A stretch of 64,000 bases of DNA from Haliotis cracherodii (Eukaryota). The translations under genes were made by a program, and so were the position numbers. Under the pieces are notes generated by a model, which was given only the letters and a program-made list of their open reading frames with translations, did not search any database and was not told the origin of the DNA. The stretch lies in the NCBI RefSeq assembly GCF_022045235.1, contig NW_027266270.1, positions 1,736,001 through 1,800,000 of the forward strand, given 5' to 3'. Positions 7,001 to 64,000 of the stretch are shown piece by piece (position 1 is the first letter of the stretch; every line of letters begins with the position of its first letter).

Positions 7001-10000
7001 ACTCTCATGGTCCTGTTCAGTAGGGGATCAGAGAGACAGTTAAAGGGGTACTCACAACGGTTAAAGCTCTCATGGTCCTGTTCACTAGGGGGTCAGACAG
7101 ACAGTTAAAGCTCTCATAGTCCTGTTCAGTAGGGGATCAGAGACACAGTTAAAGGGGTACTCACAACGGTTAAAGCTCTCATGGTCCTGTTCAGTGAAGG
7201 GATCAGAGAGATAGTTAAAGGGGTACTCACCACGGTTAAAGCTTTCATGGTCCTGTTCAGTGAGGGATCAGAGAGATAGTTAAAGGGGTACTCACCACGG
7301 TTAAAGCTTTCATGGTCCTGTTCAGTGAGGGATCAGAGAGATAGTTAAAGGGGTACTCACCACGGTTAAAGCTTTCATGGTCCTGTTTACTTAGGGATCA
7401 GAGAGATAGTTAAAGGGGTACTCACCATGATTAAAGCTCTCATGGTCCTGTTCACTAGGGGATCAGAGAGATAGTTAAAGGGGTACTCACCATGGTTAAA
7501 CCTCTCATGGTCCTGTTCACTAGGGGATCAGAGAGATAGTTAAAGGGGTACTCACCATGGTTAAAGCTCTCATGGTCCTGTTCACTAGGGGATCAGAGAG
7601 ATAGTTAAAGGGGTACTCACCATGGTTAAAGCTCTCACGGTCCTGTTCACTAGGGGATCAGAGAGATAGTTAAAGGGGTACTCACCATGGTTAAAGCTCT
7701 CATGGTCCTGTTCAGTATGGGGTCCGGGATGCTGGGGATGCTGACACACTCTGGTATCCTCACACTGCCTCCGTCTAGGTCAACAATTATCACATCCAAC
7801 TGAAAGAATCCAAAATAAGTCATCAGTACTGTAAAGATAATTACAGAATAACACCAACAATAACAATAACTATCTGCTGCCTCAAATGACTTTGGCATTG
7901 AGCAAAAATCAAAACAGCAGCCTCAAACAAATAAGGAGACTTTTCTAAATGATCCTAAAGCATGCAGAGATGTATTCCTGAGTATGAAACTGTATTTGGG
8001 AGTCCTCATGATATATAAGTCAAGTTGAGTAATGGCCATTCTACTGCTCGTTTCAATCAGGAAAGAAAAGAGAAACTGATAGCACAGATATACCCGACTG
8101 AAACAAAGCTTTGGTGGCTTTTGGATCTACTTTATTTATGATAACAGAACAAAGATTTAATAAACTTCATAACCGATTCACTAAGAAGCAAAGGCATACA
8201 CAACCTCATTAAAACAAGATCCTCCAATATAAAGCAAAGATATACACAACCTCAATAAAACAAGATCCTCCACTATGATTGGTTGGTTGGTTGGTTGGTT
8301 TGTTGTTAAATGCAACACTCAGCAATATTTCAGCTATATGACGGCAGTCTGTAAATAATTGAGTCTGGACCAGACAATCCAGTGATTGACATCATGAGCA
8401 TCGATCCACGCAATTTGGAACGATGACATGCATCAACCAAGTCAGCGAGCCTGACCACCTGATCCCGTTAGTCGCCTTTTACGACAAGCAGTCACCTTTT
8501 ACGGCAAGCATGGGTTGCTGAAGACCTATTCGACCCCGGAATCTTCACGGGTCTCTCCAATATGAAGCAAAGATATACACAACCTCATTAAAACAAGATA
8601 CTCCAATATGAAGCAAAGATATACACAACCTCATTAAAACAAGATACTCCAATATAAAGCAAAGGTATACACAACCTCATTAAAATAAGATACTCCAATA
8701 TGAAGCAAAGATATACACAACCTCATTAAAACAAGATACTCCAATATAAAGCAAAGGTATACACAACCTCATTAAAACAAGATACTCCAATATAAAGCAA
8801 AGGTATACACAACCTCATTAAAATAAGATACTCCAATATGAAGCAAAGATATACACAACCTCATTAAAACAAGATCCTCCAATATGAAGCAAAGGTATAC
8901 ACAACCTCATTAAACTTAGATACTCCAATGTGATACCTCTCTGCATGAAGATCTGAGGACGATTCCTTTGGGGGGCGTGTCAGGTGAGTTTTCTAATCAG
9001 ATTGTCAGTGTTGAGGCTTTTAAATTCTTTGTGTCTGATTCCTGTATCTTGCAAAAGAGCCAAATTGACCAGCTCATAATGAGTGGATATTCTTTTGTAC
9101 ACATTAAAACTTCCAAATCGAGGTGCTAAAGAAATGAAGCCAAATGGTCTTAGAAAGCTGATATAAAGAGCCAACACATCCTTCATTTAAACTGGGCAGT
9201 AAAAGAAAGTTAATCTGACACAACTCCCAGGGAGGGTCCTGAGATCTTCAAGCAGAGAGGTATGGTATTAGAGTAACAGGTCTGATTATAGTGACATTGT
9301 ACATAATCAAAACAAAGCCACTAAAAAATGACACAAAATATTAGTTACTTGAAAACAAAAGCATAATATCATCATTCAGTCAAGTGAACCCTTCACAACT
9401 CCACAGGAAGCAATAATTCCTCATTCACTCAGGGGAACCCTTAACAACTTCACAGGAAGCAATGATTCATCGGTCAGTCAGTCAAGGGAACCCTTCACAA
9501 CTCCACAGGAAGCAATGATTCATCATTCAGTCAGTCAGTCAGTCAAGTGAACCCTTCACAACTGCACAGGAAGCAATGATTCATCATTCACTAAGGGGAA
9601 CCCTTCACAACTCCACAGGAAGCAATGATTCATCATTCAGTGAAGTGAACCCTTCACAACTCCACAGGAAGCAATGATTCATCATTCAGTCAGTCAGTCA
9701 TCAAGTGAACCCTTCACAACTGCACAGGAAGCAATGATTCATCATTCACTAAGGGGAACCCTTCACAACTCCACAGGAAGCAATGATTCATCATTCAGTC
9801 AAGTGAACCCTTCACAACTCCACAGGAAGCAATGATTCATCATTCAGTCAAGTGAACCCTTCACACCTGCACAGGAAGCAATGATTCATCATTCACTCAG
9901 GGGAACCCTTCACAACCCCACAGGAAGCAATGATTCATCTTTCAGTCAAGGGAACCCTTCACAACTTCACAGGCAGCAATGATTCATCATTCACTCAGGG

Positions 10001-30647: not shown

Positions 30648-31439
30648 ATGTTGAATGTCAGCATCTCCAGCATGTTTACTCTCCGATTAGCTGCATTATC
30701 CTGTGACCCAGTGATCCCGTAATGGATCGGGATTAACCTTCAACCACTCAATTATATTTTGTCTGAGTCCGTAGTGCTTGTTTTTACAGACTTCGGACAC
30801 AGAACTCATCCAACAGACATAACAAAGGGTTTTCTTGTGTGGACAGCCACTAATGAATTAACAGTATCAATGAGCCATGTTCTTAGGATATACTTAATCA
30901 TGTTTGTGAGCACTACAAGAGTGTGAGGATTAATCCTGGCAAGTCAGCAAATACCTGACTCCTTCTTGGAGGCCTGTAGTGTTTACATAGGTACAAGCAT
31001 AGCATCGCCTGGTAGTCTTACGATCAATCTATCTTAATGGGCAGGATAGGCTTGTTGAGGGTTTGAATCCGACCACTGCTCTGACAATGGTTCTTGCTCT
31101 GTCAGATTTCACCCATACCGCAGATTTCACCACATAGTCACACATCTGGGTTTTTATCTCACACTGAACTGGCATGCTATAAACTGTTCAAAGCACCCTA
31201 ATCACCCACTCTTATCTTGCTCACAGACCCTAGAGCATAGCTTCAATAAAACGATCATCCCCTTTCCTCTCAGCCTCTACTTATCTCCTTCTCTTCTCTA
31301 TAAGCTCATTCTCATCCCCTTCTCATCTCTAGCAGCCTAATACTCATCCCCTTTTCAGCTGAAGAAAATAAGAGACTTGCCTCAGGGTTCCATGATACAT
31401 AAGGTGCACTGGTTCAATTCTTTAATTTGTTATGCAATG

Positions 31440-33518
31440 TCAGCTATCGGCCATGATCACAATGAAGCTTACAGTGCAGTACCTATTCAAAAAGATCACT
31501 TGCAATGTCGGCCATCGGCCATGATCACAATGAAGCTTACAGTGCAGTACCTATTCAAAAAGATCACTTGCAGTGGAGGCCATCGGCCATGATCACAATG
31601 AAGCTTACAGTGCAGTACCTACTCATAAAGATCACTTGCAGTGGAGGCCATCGGCCGGGATCACAATGAAGCTTACAGTGCAGTACCTACTCATAAAGAT
31701 CACTTGCAGTGTAGGCCATCGGCCATGATCACAATGAAGCTTACAGTGCAGTACCTACTCATAAAGATCACTTGCAGTGGAGGCCATGATCACAATGAAG
31801 CTTACAGTGCAGTACCTACTCATAAAGATCACTTGCAGTGTAGGCTATCGGCCATGATCACAATGAAGCTTACAGTGCAGTACCTACTCATAAAGATCAC
31901 TTGCAGTGGAGGCTATCGGCCATGATCACAATGAAGCTTACAGTGCAGTACCTACTCATAAAGATCACTTGCAGTGGAGGCCATCGGCCATGATCACAAT
32001 GAAGCTTACAGTGCAGTACCTACTCATAAAGATCACTTGCAGTGGAGGCCATTGGCCATGATCACAATGAAGCTTACAGTGCAGTACCTACTCATAAAGA
32101 TCACTTGCAGTGGAGGCCATCGGCCATGATCACAATGAAGCTTACAGTGCAGTACCTACTCATAAAGATCACTTGCAGTGGAGGCTATCGGCCATGATCA
32201 CAATAAAGCTTACAGTGCAGTACCTACTCATAAAGATCACTTGCAATGTCGGCCATCGGCCATGATCACAATGAAGCTTACAGTGCAGTACCTACTCATA
32301 AAGATCACTTGCAGTGGAGGCCATGATCACAATGAAGCTTACAGTGCAGTACCTATTCAAAAAGATCACTTGCAATGTAGGCCATCGGCCATGATCACAA
32401 TGAAGCTTACAGTGCAGTACCTACTCATAAAGATCACTTGCAGTGGAGGCCATCGGCCATGATCACAATGAAGCTTACAGTGCAGTACCTACTCATAAAG
32501 ATCACTTGCAGTGGAGGCCATGATCACAATGAAGCTTACAGTGCAGTACCTATTCAAAAAGATCACTTGCAATGTAGGCCATCAGCCATGATCACAATGA
32601 AGCTTACAGTGCAGTACCTACTCATAAAGATCACTTGCAGTGGAGGCCATCGGCCATGATCACAATGAAGCTTACAGTGCAGTACCTACTCATAAAGATC
32701 ACTTGCAGTGGAGGCCATCGGCCATGATCACAATGAAGCTTACAGTGCAGTACCTACTCATAAAGATCACTTGCAGTGGAGGCCATCGGCCATGATCACA
32801 ATGAAGCTTACAGTGCAGTACCTACTCATAAAGATCACTTGCAGTGGAGGCCATCGGCCATGATCACAATGAAGCTTACAGTGCAGTACCTACTCATAAA
32901 GATCACTTGCAGTGGAGGCTATCGGCCATGATCACAATAAAGCTTACAGTGCTGTACCTACTCATAAAGATCACTTGCAATGTCGGCCATCGGCCATGAT
33001 CACAATGAAGCTTATAGTGCTGTACCTACTCATAAAGATCACTTGCAGTGGAGGCCATGATCACAATGAAGCTTACAGTGCAGTACCTATTCAAAAAGAT
33101 CACTTGCAATGTAGGCCATCGGCCATGATCACAATGAAGCTTACAGTGCAGTACCTACTCATAAAGATCACTTGCAGTGGAGGCCATGATCACAATGAAG
33201 CTTACAGTGCAGTACCTATTCAAAAAGATCACTTGCAATGTAGGCCATCGGCCATGATCACAATGAAGCTTACAGTGCAGTACCTACTCATAAAGATCAC
33301 TTGCAGTGGAGGCCATCGGCCATGATCACAATGAAGCTTACAGTGCAGTACCTACTCATAAAGATCACTTGCAGTGGAGGCCATCGGCCATGATCACAAT
33401 GAAGCTTACAGTGCAGTACCTACTCATAAAGATCACTTGCAGTGGAGGCCATCGGCCATGATCACAATGAAGCTTACAGTGCAGTACCTACTCATAAAGA
33501 TCACTTGCAGTGGAGGCC
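31440..33518. repeat. 68/61-bp satellite, 2.1 kb
   Basis: ggccatgatcacaatgaagcttacagtgcagtacctactcataaagatcacttgcagtggaggccatc, ~31 copies. Confidence 0.96.
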
Positions 33519-35730: not shown

Positions 35731-36771
35731 ACATAGTCCAGGGCGACACAGCATGTAGACTGTGTGTGCTGCGCCTGTCTGCCATCCTGTGTGCTTGCAA
35801 GTGTTTGATATTTGTCTAGCAAAATGATGGTGCTCTAAAAATAATGACGTCTGGATTGGACAATCCAGTGATATTATGAGCAACGATCCATGCCGTCGCA
35901 GTACGATGACATGCAACAAACCCAGTCACTGTGCCTTACCTATCAAGTTGCCTCTGTGACCACCAGTATGGGTTGCTGGGGACCAATTCTAACACAGAAT
36001 CTCCCGGGGACATGGCTATCTTGCTGACCAATTAGTGTTTGTAGTTAATGGGTGCTTGAGGATTGCTGCTAGGGCTGGGACCCCCGAATCATTAACTTTC
36101 ATTGGGGTTATGACAAGGACTTCTCAAGTTCAAACAGTGCCAAGGATCATAATCTGGCTAACTCAAGGATTCAAACCCATTGCGAAAGGAAGGGAACTGC
36201 ACATCAATTATAGCACCTTACGCTACTGGTGTTCCCACTGGGCAACTTACACCTTCCAGATATGACACACTCATCAAAGGTCTTGGCTTCTGCCCTGAAG
36301 CAGATATAGATGTATTTTAAGCTTGATGGATTTCATTATTGTCAGGTCAACCTAACCAAATTGTTTAGCTCCATACAGCAGTTTAACACTTTCAAAACAC
36401 AGTCTGTCACTGATATTCCAAATACCATATGCAAAGCAAGCACTTTAAGAGTGATCCTATTTCCTGTTTGTTACATTCACAAGTGTATAGCTATCATGTA
36501 GTTGGCTGTATAAGCCAATCAAGGTTCTGTACACCTAGCTCATCATGCTGGGGTGTTGAGAGAGTGAACTAGTTTGGTTTTACACCACTTTCAACAGTAT
36601 TCCAGTTATATCACAGCTTGTCAGCTTAATACGCAAGGAAAGCCCAAAGTGATGCAGGTCTCAGACGTTTACCACATTGGTAAAACCGGCACAAGCACGG
36701 GCTGCTGACAAACCTAGAAACCTCGAAACTGGGATACGCACCCACTGTCACAGGTTCCTGGCGTGCCTAAG

Positions 36772-56000: not shown

Positions 56001-57459
56001 ATCTTAGATGACAATCCCCAGTAAAAACACACTGTCAACAGGTTTGCCATCTCCTTTCTTGAACAGATATTTGTGAAACACTGACACTGTAGTCAATGTT
56101 CTGTAAGCACTCAACTCTGGACTATTCTGTAAGTGCAAGACTCCTGACTTCCATTCAGTCTGAGACTTGCTTTTCTTATCAAAGGCTGGAAAGCTGGCAG
56201 CACGATTTAAAGTGAATCCAATAAGAGGGACAAAAATTCTGCAGAAAAACAAACGTGCCATATTAGCCTAAAGATGATCACCTGAGTCTAAAAACTGTAG
56301 ATTTTTAGGTCTGTGGAATAAAAAACACCTGTTCTGACTAGAAAGGTACTACGCTCTATTCCTGAAATAAATCAAGACTCCATTAGTCCTGTCTGAACCG
56401 CTAATGAATCTATCCGCCATGTTAATCATGTCCACATTGTGATATCATCAACGCAAGGATGGAAATTGCTTTTGATATCATCCTAGAATGGCAAGGCAAT
56501 TACCAAGTCATCACGGCAGCTATAACGTGTAATGTACAATTACTTACTTAATAGAAACTTTTTCTACAACAGCATGGATATGGGGTAATTTTATCCCCTT
56601 GATAGGCAAGTCTAGATATGTGGACAGTACTAAGTCTTTTATAGGGGGAACTTGTTCTTATTATTTACATAATCTAAAACTTATGATTTAAACTCAAAAA
56701 CTAATAATTAACGGGTGTTCTTTCGAGTAGTATATTTGTTCAAAAGTGTCACAGGGCCTCCCAAAGATGTTCGGAATTTATGTGTACTGAGTTCCTTCAG
56801 ATTCTTTGAACGTCACTTAACCATGTCCTAGGCGATAAACAGTTGTAATTTAGAAAGGAAAGTTATCACTAGCTTTGTATAATGGACTTTATCATAAGGT
56901 AAAGATATTTGTAAGTTATTTTTGCATGTTACTCTCAGAGTAACTACCAAACAGAACTCAGATCAAACACTGCAAAATGTTAATTCTAAGCACATTCTTT
57001 GGAGTTGCAGAAGAAGAAGGAGAAAAATATTCATTGTACATAAACACCCACAGGGGGCAGGGTACAAAACATGAACTGAAATTCCAACATTCCTTCACAA
57101 AGTATAACAGATATATTGTACCCCACCCATACGGAGACACCACCCAAATGGATTTAACAGTAACTTAACACTTGCTTCACCACCCTGCTGGCTGGTACAG
57201 AGAAAAGAAAAACTGGACTTTTAGAAGTTCACAACGTTGGAACATTTCTTCACTCAGAATCAGGTAAATCTATATCAAACTGTGTATTTGGAGAATTCCT
57301 ATAACAGATGACTGTGTATGGGCAGATGGAGGTCACCACTGTAACAAGAATCATGAGTCTCATTAAATCTCTCAAGTTGAAAGCAAAGGTTGTATTTCCA
57401 CCCCCTTCTTCAATCCACACATTTCTTCTCACCGTGTATCTCCATCCATTGGGACCACA

Positions 57460-58880
57460 TAATCCCCATCTTACATGTCTTAGGCAACAACCAACTGGCT
57501 TGAGACAACACATTCCCCATCTTAGGCAACAACCAACTGGCTTGAGACAACACATTCCCCATCTTAGGCAACAACCAACTGGCTTGAGACAACACATTCC
57601 CCATCTTAGGCAACAACCAATTGGCTTGAGACAACACATTCCCCATCTTAGGCAACAACCAATTGGCTTGAGACAACACATTCCCCATCTTAGGCAACAA
57701 CCAATTGGCTTGAACAACACATTCCCCATCTTAGGCAACAACCAATTGGCTTGAGACAACACATTCCCCATCACAGGCAACAACCGATTGGCTTGAGAAA
57801 ACACAGTCCCCATCTCAGGCAACAACCAATTGGCTTGAGACAACACATTCCCCATCTCAGGCAACAACCAATTGGCTTGAGACAAAACATTCCCCATCTC
57901 AGGCAACAACCAATTGGCTTGAGACAACACATTCCCCATCTCAGGCAACAACCAATTGGCTTGAGACAACACATTCCCCATCTTAGGCAACAACCAATTG
58001 GCTTGAGACAACATATTCCCCATCTTAGGCAACAACCAAATGGCTTGAGACAACACATTCCCCATCTTAGGCAACAACCAATTTACTTGAGACAACACAT
58101 TCCCCATCTTAGGCAACAACAAGTTGGCTTGAGACAACACATTCCCCATCTTAGGCAACAACCAATTGGCTTGAGACAACACATTCCCCATCTTAGGCAA
58201 CAACCAATTGGCTTGAGACAACATATTCCCCATCTTAGGCAACAACCAATTGGCTTGAGACAACACATTGCCCATCTTAGGCAACAACCAATTGGCTTGA
58301 GACAACACATTGCCCATCTTAGGCAACAACCAATTGGCTTGAGACAACATATTCTCCATCTTAGGCAACAACCAACTGGCTTGAGACGACACATTCCCCA
58401 TCTTAGGCAACAACCAATTGGCTTGAGACAACACATTCCCCATCTTAGGCAACAACCAATTGGCTTGAGACAACATATTCCCCATCTTAGGCAACAACCA
58501 ATTGGCTTGAGACAACACATTCCCCATCTTAGGCAACAACCAATTGGCTTGAGACAACATATTCCCCATCTTAGGCAACAACCAATTGGCTTGAGACAAC
58601 ATATTCCCTATCTTAGGCAACAACCAATTGTCTTGAGACAACATATTCCCCATCTTAGGAATCTCTTACTCACCACTCAACTGGCATTGGGAGCACCAAC
58701 ACCCTATCATAGAAATCTCTTAGTCACCAACCAGTGGGCATTGGGAGCACCTATTTTCCATCTTAGTATGATCTTTTACTCACGACTCAGTTGGCATTGG
58801 GAGCACTTGCACCCCATCCTAGAAATATCTTAGATACCTAACCAATTGACATTAGGAGCATGTATTCTTCATCATAGGCA
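57460..58880. repeat. 42-bp minisatellite (homogeneous to ~58660, degenerate after)
   Basis: cttaggcaacaaccaattggcttgagacaacacattccccat, ~28 copies plus decayed units. Confidence 0.96.
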
Positions 58881-62209: not shown

Positions 62210-63364
62210 GATACTATAATAAACATTTACTTCTATTTTCAAAGAATAACATAAGAATCCAACATTGGAAATTTTACCAAAAACTGCACTCAAACCATTT
62301 GGAAAAGAAAGAAACTATAGTGGAATAAGTAGGGTGTCACAGTTTACCAATATTAATTAATGCATCAATAAGATTCTCCAATGACACAATAGGCAATACA
62401 CTTCCGGGTTCCCTGTATTGATTCAATATTCAATCCTGTATCAAATCCTATTTTGACCCTGTATAGTTCCACACATGGACCCATTCATATTTAATTCATT
62501 AAATGTGGAGGGACACATCTAAGATATATCGCAAACATGGAATTTGCCATTTTACCTAAAAATACAAAATACTTATGACATTCAAGTTTTATCTGAAATA
62601 AAATATTCATTGAAATTAGACACTTTTATTTCAAATATGAGACAAGATTTCAGGAAGTCTCATGCCTTTTTAAGAGTGTTTATGCCCAAGGAAATACAAA
62701 GATTTACGCAAAATTTCCAGGAATTAAGTATCACAATACCTATCAAATCAGGAGAAAGTTTTTTCATGACATCCCAAGGATTAAGTTTCAATTGGTCATG
62801 TGTTGTTTTATAGTCTTCAATGTTGATTTGTTACCATGGTTACAGGACGACTTACGGTAACCACATTTCTACATGAATAGGTCTCTTTCCAACCCTCACC
62901 TACTGTCACACAAAAATATGTCTAGCAGGAGATTGCCAACATTTGTGAGGAACTTCAACATTATCAGTCTGTAAAGTGAGTTTCCTCCTGGGAAATCATC
63001 TGAAAGTTCTTCGTAATATCTTGTTGAAACTTTCTTGTTGAAACTTTCATACTGAAATTTCTCTTTCCATTTGATTTTTTTATTTTTACAACAAAACAAT
63101 CACTGCTCCTTACCATCATCAAGTATTTTTCCATTGAGAGTGTAGTGCTGATCACTTGGTTTGTGTTTGCCTTGTACAAGAGATTCCTTACATTGCCCAC
63201 TAATTGCAAACACTTGCAGCAATACGTTGTAGCTGCAAGCTACTGCTGGATGCTTTGTGGTTTCACCAGGCCCTGAATGTTGGAGCTCCATTCATCTGTC
63301 AAGTTTGCACATTGTGGGGGGTAGACCACAGCAGCCGGAGGTGGTTGGAGGCATGCTCCATTGC

Positions 63365-63646
63365 TTTGTTTGTTTGTTTGTTGTTGTTGTTTAACGGCGC
63401 ACTCAGCAATATTCCAGCTATATGATGGCGGTCTATAAATAATCGAGTCTGGACCAGACAATCCAGTGATTAATATCATGAGCATCGATCCACGCAAATG
63501 GGATCGATGACATGCATCAACAAAGGCAGCGAGCCTGACCACCCGACAACCCGATTCCATTAGTCACCTCTTACGACAAGCATAGTCACTTTTTACGGCA
63601 AGCATGAGTTGCTGAAGACCTATTCTACCCCGGAATCTTCACGGGT
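63365..63646 (-). mobile_element. SINE-like family B, full length
   Basis: Homologous to 8279-8552; TSD tgc(t/a)ccattgc. Confidence 0.88.
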
Positions 63647-64000
63647 GTGCACCATTGCCCTACATCACCTTCCTCACTTCACCAGCACAAATAGCAGGGA
63701 AATAACTAGTTTGTCCAGCACACAGCAGGGAAATAATTAGTTTATTCAGCACACAGCAGGGAAATAATAAGTCTAACCAGCACACATCTGTATAATCACA
63801 ACTTTCACTAAACACTGAAAGTGAGAGAGAGTAGGTTTAACTCTGCAATGAACAGTATTTCAGTTACTGTCATGGCAGGTCAAAGAGGCTTCAAAAGCAT
63901 GAAGTGATGAATGTGATTTTTAATACTATTCTCAAATGCACAGTTTTTAAATTCAAATCAGTTAATTTTCTAGGATGCTGAATGATCATCAACCAAAAAT

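Follow-up and report, generated by a model that had tools for sequence, protein, structure and literature searches.

A predicted tandem-pseudoknot RNA domain common to an abalone LP-SINE, its partner LINE and the 3' UTRs of RNA viruses

The goal of this analysis was to determine what forms the 5' end of a short retroposon on the minus strand of Haliotis cracherodii DNA, and what that end might do. The window (the whole stretch analysed, 64,000 nucleotides) had been given a preliminary description in which the element was read as SINE-like with a structured, ribozyme-like head instead of a tRNA head, and a self-cleaving RNA or an internal promoter was offered as its function. SINEs are defined by heads that carry a Pol III promoter, and LP-SINEs are the exception. 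The element does begin without a tRNA head, at G8553 beside its target-site duplication (TSD), and a second full copy begins at 63646–63647. The earlier reading that clear A and B boxes are lacking was also borne out: the head contains neither of the boxes by which a tRNA-headed Pol III SINE is recognized, and a single loose B-box-like word was found far downstream, in the body only. ARAGORN found no tRNA in the 64-kb window, and no Rfam 15 family matched the window, the element, or any of 12 homologous loci. The features are collected in Table 1.

Table 1. Window coordinates of the SINE copies and of the predicted elements of the head
Feature	Position	Strand	Remark
Full SINE copy, 276 nt	8278..8553	-	256 nt without the 20-nt duplication
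5' target-site duplication	8555..8564	-	Extra A at 8554; length ambiguous, inside 46-bp satellite
3' target-site duplication	8268..8277	-	
5' G (8553) and P1 5' strand	8548..8553	-	Predicted pairing with the P2 loop (pseudoknot A)
P2 5' strand, 7 nt	8540..8546	-	Preceded by 1-nt U linker at 8547
P1 3' strand	8534..8538	-	Basis: anchored pair count
Conserved AGAAUA loop, pseudoknot A	8527..8532	-	First base mutated to C in copy 8278–8553
P2 3' strand	8520..8526	-	84.8% of cells paired, two-sided changes at 5/7 pairs (16 non-viral heads)
P3 hairpin AGCA/UGCU	8507..8519	-	P5 5' strand (8514–8512) in its loop
Duplicated, mismatched first P4 hairpin and spacer	8486..8505	-	
Conserved P4 hairpin, 7-nt loop, then UAA	8468..8485	-	Invariance partly imposed by search pattern
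P5 3' strand, closes pseudoknot B	8464..8466	-	Basis: permutation test
LINE-derived 3' tail	8312..8337	-	25/26 nt identical, SINE copy L002 versus 3' end of LINE L279
(AACC)n microsatellite tail	8278..8310	-	
Second full copy	63364..63647	-	TSD, doubled hairpin, several broken pairs
Old diverged head	35932..36012	-	Model score 25.9 bits

Exact pattern matches across the whole genome gave 10,261 copies of a form with a doubled hairpin and 978 of a form with a single hairpin; these counts are lower bounds, and the SINE total exceeds 11,000 copies. Within the window the hairpin motif occurred 11 times, versus 0.05 expected, and a TSD was recovered in 29 of the 30 SINE copies examined. The copy at 8278–8553 carries the 20-nt hairpin duplication and one substitution in the conserved AGAAT, so that the single-module consensus previously quoted for 8461–8552 is not the sequence found there. 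In the old copy, the compensatory pair that had been noted is present, but another pair of the same stem is broken. Tandem duplications of the 5' half of the head or of the entire head were seen in other copies (window 19635–19760; L073). The SINE insertion splits a 46-bp satellite (8186–8276 and 8555–8933), and many further minisatellite arrays lie in the window, for example at 31433–33518 and 57449–58877.

The element fits the LP-SINEs, an assignment made from its head, length, TSDs, and tail. LP-SINEs are known from abalone, oysters, and periwinkle under the names Hdi_LP, Hmi_LP, Oco_LP, and Sgl_LP; they are 255–256 bp long, the Hdi_LP and Hmi_LP consensus being 255 bp (Matetovici et al. 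2016, PMC4758252). As in that description, the head is about 70 nt long and not of tRNA type, the length without the duplication is 256 nt, and TSDs and a microsatellite (tandem-repeat) tail are present; the head is LINE-derived rather than from tRNA or 5S RNA, its domain also occurring in the 5' UTRs of LINEs of the same genome. The published head of about 70 bp is common to the LINEs Nimb-17_LMi, I-3_DR, and RTE-9_CPB, three Repbase elements whose 5' ends carry the LP domain (PMC4758252). In Supplementary Figure S2 of that paper, the scallop block labelled "Nimb-17 homology" agrees with the head in its conserved bases and, as judged by eye, in its stems. The AATATA hexamer given in the paper was not found as such in copy 8278–8553. 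The head had been described before, in the text of that paper as a presumed LINE promoter, with mention of the L1Tc ribozyme parallel and with neither a structure, nor viruses, nor a named partner LINE (PMC4758252). The parts of a 2024 survey of bivalve SINEs that bear on the subject deal with tails and not with the LP head (PMC11481361). Structure, viral occurrence, or function of the head was reported nowhere in the full-text literature that we searched, a scope that excludes most subscription journals, Repbase, Dfam, and figures. We conclude that both the SINE family and the head had already been published, and that what appears to be new is the structure, the viral occurrence, and the functional reading: a covarying double pseudoknot, a partner LINE of I/Nimb type with a common head and tail, an upstream fold like the hepatitis delta virus (HDV) ribozyme, viral homologues, and the doubling of the hairpin.

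The first ~70–90 nt are predicted to form a conserved RNA domain of two tandem pseudoknots and a conserved hairpin with a 7-nt loop. In the model, pseudoknot A (P1 of 4–5 bp, a single U, P2 of 7 bp, and an AGAAUA loop) adjoins pseudoknot B (P3 and P5), with P4 in the loop of B. The evidence is comparative, because single-sequence folding gave no signal: it did no better than shuffles, with z values of −0.19 for the copy and −1.1 to +0.74 for the heads. Covariation was examined in a MAFFT alignment of 16 non-viral heads. Two-sided changes were found in P2 (Table 1) and at three of the four pairs of P3, which was found by RNAalifold and was paired in 82.8% of cells. The whole model scored 0.399, compared with 0.178 ± 0.023 for shuffled alignments, the shuffle ignoring relatedness among heads, and at most 0.128 for slid ones. 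Anchored pair counts for P1 were 61/64 in the non-viral heads (16 cases) and 23/28 in the viral heads (7 cases, among them L318, which is mis-registered for P1 at 1/4 and was kept in the count). Those for P2, whose register was fitted (shuffle p ≤ 0.033 in six of seven viral cases) and moved by hand in three non-viral rows, were 95/112 and 47/49; those for P3 were 55/64 and 26/28. P1 and P2 were proposed with the viral sequences already seen, and P3, which came from the non-viral rows only, is the sole clean held-out test. P5, which joins the P3 loop to the bases after the hairpin, scored 88 versus 72.6 ± 3.8 for permuted data (0 of 5000 permutations), and 68 versus 54.0 ± 3.5 after thinning to 18 sequences; it is missing (1 bp) in L032 and L036, two of the seven viral cases, and weak (2 bp) in three others.

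The P4 hairpin, GTCG/CGAC, showed no variation; having served as the search key, it carries no covariation evidence. Among 30 doubled copies, GTCG/CGAC was intact in none of the first hairpins and in 28 of the second. By its consensus, the 7-nt loop of P4 appears T-loop-like; a B-box reading of this loop was rejected because the tRNA C is not conserved, and a UUAG/CUAA pairing in the element's own sequence was rejected by eye because homologues do not keep it. Covariation thus backs a structured RNA, as had been proposed, with a fold other than the one drawn. The GAAGA/TCTTC stem stands and extends to the 7 bp of P2. The CCCGT/ACGGG enclosing stem failed: it was paired in 47.5% of cells, none of its pairs changed on both sides, and its anchored counts were 36/80 (non-viral) and 14/35 (viral). 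So did the GGGT/ACCC pseudoknot, with 41.7% paired for three of its four pairs and anchored counts of 28/64 and 11/28.

Other SINE families have a homologue of the head at their 5' end, LINEs have one in their 5' UTRs, and six RNA viruses have one in their 3' UTRs. A search of metagenome contigs with an 18-nt key gave at least 122 stretches, mostly from several SINE-like families. The same search of viral contigs gave nine loci, seven with the full fold and two with the hairpin only; L035 and L039 were dropped as matching in the hairpin alone, and L037 nearly duplicates L032. One looser viral scan (19 stretches) added a true case, L318, and other looser scans (44, 22, and 13 stretches) gave no new one. 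Six distinct RNA-virus contigs carry the full fold on the coding strand in the 3' UTR, at 4, 9, 22, 72, 99, and 196 nt past the last stop codon. Their identities include tombus-like RdRp, toti-like RdRp, and A21 capsid; L031, which had no Pfam hit, was classed by RdRp-like motifs and has a second, tandem, cut-off copy of the head at its 3' end. A model built from the 16 non-viral heads gave the viral cases 35–74 bits, compared with 25.9 bits for hairpin-only chance matches; the E-values of the viral cases are inflated, all having been found with the search key. The P2 loop was 12–13 nt long in all seven viral cases and in the abalone LINE. Since homologues occur both in RNA-virus 3' UTRs and in retroelements, the head most likely acts as RNA.

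Several other loci deserve mention. A full fold lies between two same-strand genes in a 212-kb DNA-virus contig (L033:2953–3030), with a gene for NAD-dependent ligase about 700 nt upstream. In L238:598–739 (minus strand), the loop of pseudoknot A holds a long inserted hairpin and every stem is preserved; what by eye is a broken endonuclease-like ORF lies downstream. In L098, L106, and L124 the head appears by eye to be fused upstream of a tRNA-like region, as in the reported scallop MESC SINEs. Prokaryote assemblies gave 21 matches. Six had the full motif, all in eukaryote-like repeat or LINE DNA (animal-type SINE/LINE DNA in L231, L234, L235, L238, L243, and L245), and were read as contamination, probably from host or reads; the other 15 were dropped as chance, and bacterial occurrence was rejected.

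In L245 the head lies upstream of a gag-like ORF, and the L245 ORF has many relatives in the abalone genome. Full LINE copies there are about 5.7–6.2 kb long, with TSDs, ORF1, and an ORF2 whose APE-RT-RNase H architecture leads us to infer a LINE of I/Nimb type. Its 3' end matches the SINE tail (Table 1), and the head was present in the 5' UTR of 28 of 30 LINE loci, with stems that differ in sequence but pair. The LINE head lies directly behind a 58-nt HDV-like fold (L247:831–888) with P1 of 7 bp (7/7 paired), P2 of 7 bp (7/7), P3 of 3 bp (3/3), a 7-nt L3 with CC, GG, and C in J4/2. This module scored 29 bits against Rfam RF02682 (E = 0.071), below the gathering score of 44; judged by sequence, it is a canonical-looking, compact candidate HDV-like ribozyme. 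It occupies the exact 5' end of I/Nimb-type LINEs (L247, L277–L280) and occurs in at least 565 copies in the genome, its 3' end being directly upstream of 565 of the 588 LINE heads. All 30 sampled LINE copies had the 5' end of this module, and 29 of them started at its G1. Our full-text literature search found no paper on an HDV-like ribozyme in Nimb elements.

The SINE copies begin elsewhere. Of the 30 best full-length SINE matches, the first base is the G itself in 24 (in nine of these it also belongs to the TSD); of the other six, three have an extra A, one has a T, one has five extra bases, and one is without a TSD. The 7 nt of flank in the query may bias toward the extra A. In four metagenome families the point where conservation begins has the same position relative to P2 (heads were readable in 32/40, 10/16, 9/13, and 7/7 instances), and 5' ends thus lie at the same fold position in five families, the abalone SINE included. 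For two more metagenome families 5' truncation was considered and rejected, because they have long, unstructured loop-A insertions instead (57–66 nt and 130–143 nt) and still start at P1; 10 of 14 and 7 of 12 rows were parsed, three of them to the wrong anchor. Terminal copies were mostly purine-initial (29/30, 22/32, 6/10, and 8/9), and those of the tRNA-fused family were not. LINE copies extend 58 nt beyond the 5' edge of the head.

The explanation that we prefer, with confidence a little short of even, is that the head stalls the host 5'-to-3' exonucleases Xrn1 or Xrn2 and so sets the 5' end of read-through RNA. An element without a promoter of its own would be read through in a host Pol II transcript; this RNA would be decapped or cut and trimmed from its 5' side, trimming would halt one base before the P1 strand, and the I/Nimb-type LINE from which the SINE has its 3' tail would then reverse-transcribe the protected RNA. 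A ribozyme-cut 5'-OH end is not a substrate for Xrn1. Shielding by a 5'-OH has been stated in the literature (PMC11331408). In the LINE, the upstream HDV-like ribozyme would free an RNA with a 5'-OH that stays untrimmed, and copies would retain both modules. In the RNA viruses, a block just past the last stop codon may shield the 3' end or give rise to a subgenomic non-coding RNA. We favor a passive block because it fits three facts, namely that the fold occurs in RNA viruses, that SINEs begin at its 5' edge, and that ribozyme-led LINEs do not; it alone predicts both the SINE and the LINE boundaries. What the data establish are the boundaries, the distribution, the covariation, the common tail, and the arrangement of HDV-like module and head; the steps above are proposed.

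The tandem copy in L031 also suits an exonuclease block, tandem exonuclease-resistant RNAs (xrRNAs) being described as common in flaviviruses (PMC13556198) and T-loop docking as forming part of a plant-virus xrRNA (PMC12397905). Several points count against it. Two successful families tolerate the long loop-A insertions, whereas solved xrRNA rings are given as 15–16 nt (PMC8374639, relevant section), and four known frameshift pseudoknots are reported to fail to stall Xrn1 (PMC10321173, relevant section). The block seems redundant in the LINE, where an HDV fold already lies upstream, and the HDV fold has itself been proposed to resist exonucleases (PMC11331408). Purine-initial copies look like transcription starts. 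Two of the seven viral cases lack P5, and the head does not conform to any known xrRNA class. Finally, the most successful abalone subfamily doubled its hairpin, a change more in keeping with a binding module than with a rigid fold.

Such a module is what the next explanation supposes: the invariant hairpin would bind a host factor (translation factor, ribosome, or stabilising protein) in place of a cap, so that uncapped LINE or virus RNA is translated and SINE RNA at ribosomes captures LINE protein. Tombus-like and toti-like groups have uncapped RNA, and tombusvirus 3' enhancers act by 5'–3' kissing. The head lies directly behind a ribozyme that would leave the RNA uncapped, and tombus-like and toti-like contigs carry it in their 3' UTRs; its loop bases are invariant, the doubled-hairpin form outnumbers the single form by about 10:1, and long loop insertions are tolerated. 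Cap-independent initiation has also been proposed for ribozyme-led LINEs (PMC6765202, relevant section). This reading can be combined with an exonuclease block. We think it unlikely: it does not by itself account for the common start of five SINE families at one fold position, and the head has no evident variable free loop for kissing.

A cut or a transcription start at the 5' edge, the functions first suggested for the head, is disfavored by the LINE: either would strip the HDV-like module from LINE copies, yet its 3' end is retained at 565 of the 588 heads. The six RNA viruses with the fold in their 3' UTRs weigh against both as well. If the head were a new self-cleaving ribozyme cutting just 5' of P1, the single-nucleotide, often purine 5' boundary, the invariant junction bases, the nested pseudoknots, and the position of the domain at the 5' ends of three Repbase LINEs, reported in the LP-SINE paper (PMC4758252), would be accounted for. 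Like the HDV-like ribozymes of R2 and of L1Tc/ingi (Pr77), the head is a 5'-terminal double pseudoknot at the 5' end of its element, with a hairpin, CUAA, and a closing strand; the strand order of pseudoknot B is that of HDV (P1-P2-P4-CUAA-P2). In the alignments, however, it lacks a 7-bp P1 from G1, P3 with a 7-nt L3, and P1.1, and in the LINE the HDV-like fold is a separate module upstream. An Rfam search of the SINE element at E ≤ 10 gave no ribozyme match, in line with the preliminary description, and neither the window nor the element nor any of the 12 homologous loci matched the Rfam models of hammerhead, twister, twister sister, pistol, or hatchet. In a virus, cleavage where the 3' UTR begins would split the genome. 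The purine is absent from most internal copies; these may be inactive, but their conservation would then need another function. We regard a new ribozyme as improbable.

An internal Pol II promoter, the "LINE promoter" of Matetovici et al. (2016), with the RNA fold secondary or dual as in L1Tc Pr77, would agree with the place of the head at the 5' terminus of many families, with a +1 base that is often a purine, and with the tolerance of differing distances from the 5' half to the invariant block; Pr77 provides a precedent (PMC3383444). RNA viruses have no DNA promoter, however; the 5' half covaries rather than keeping its sequence, and a start at the head would lose the HDV module from LINE copies. 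We give a promoter the same slight chance as a ribozyme. Its Pol III version is unlikely, with no A or B box in the head and runs of T5–T7 inside related families.

The head might instead be a site bound by LINE protein that fixes the 5' junction at integration, like the 5' pseudoknot of R2, whose protein binds a pseudoknot in its own 5' UTR (PMC6765202, relevant section). In favor of this, the head is common to the SINE and its partner LINE. The viruses, the use of the head by both Nimb and RTE LINEs (reported in PMC4758252), and the LINE copies reaching 58 nt further would all be unexplained, and we consider this very improbable. One master gene driven by a promoter outside it could account for the sharp start of one family, but not for the recurrence of that start in five.

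With respect to the exonuclease block, the head resembles viral xrRNAs (classes 1–3 and coremin; PMC8374639 and PMC12397905, in the parts that describe these) in being compact, pseudoknotted, and located close to where viral 3' UTRs begin, in its tandem copy in one virus, in the pairing of its 5'-terminal bases into a pseudoknot, and in its T-loop-like element. It has the architecture of no known xrRNA class. Unlike classes 1 and 2, it lacks a three-way junction, its supported stems forming tandem H-type pseudoknots, and its pseudoknot order differs from that of class 3; its loop A ranges from 12 to ~150 nt, it is found in retroelements, and its exonuclease resistance is only predicted. A 2021 review treats xrRNAs in cellular RNAs as unfound (PMC8374639). 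With more reserve than for the block itself, we suggest that the head may represent a new xrRNA class, the first in animal genomes, portable among I/Nimb and RTE LINEs, promoterless SINEs, and RNA viruses, and that the SINE 5' end may be made by host RNA decay and not by a promoter or ribozyme.

If the head works as RNA, retroposons would have, in addition to promoters and ribozymes, a third way of forming a 5' end. Natural variants from more than 20 lineages and a built-in control, the LINE with and without its HDV module, make the xrRNA question testable. Whatever its function, a structured RNA that retrotransposons have in common with RNA viruses, and that Rfam 15 lacks, merits curation.

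Two minor observations concern the partner LINE. A second SINE family, which is tRNA-headed, has the same LINE-type 3' tail (L278:6457–6613, L280:6886–7047, and L305). About 65 LINE heads in both orientations lie within 0.85 Mb at C2:20.90–21.75 Mb, possibly a silencing cluster or a centromeric region, and similar clusters of ORF1 matches were found on C6, C23, and C67.
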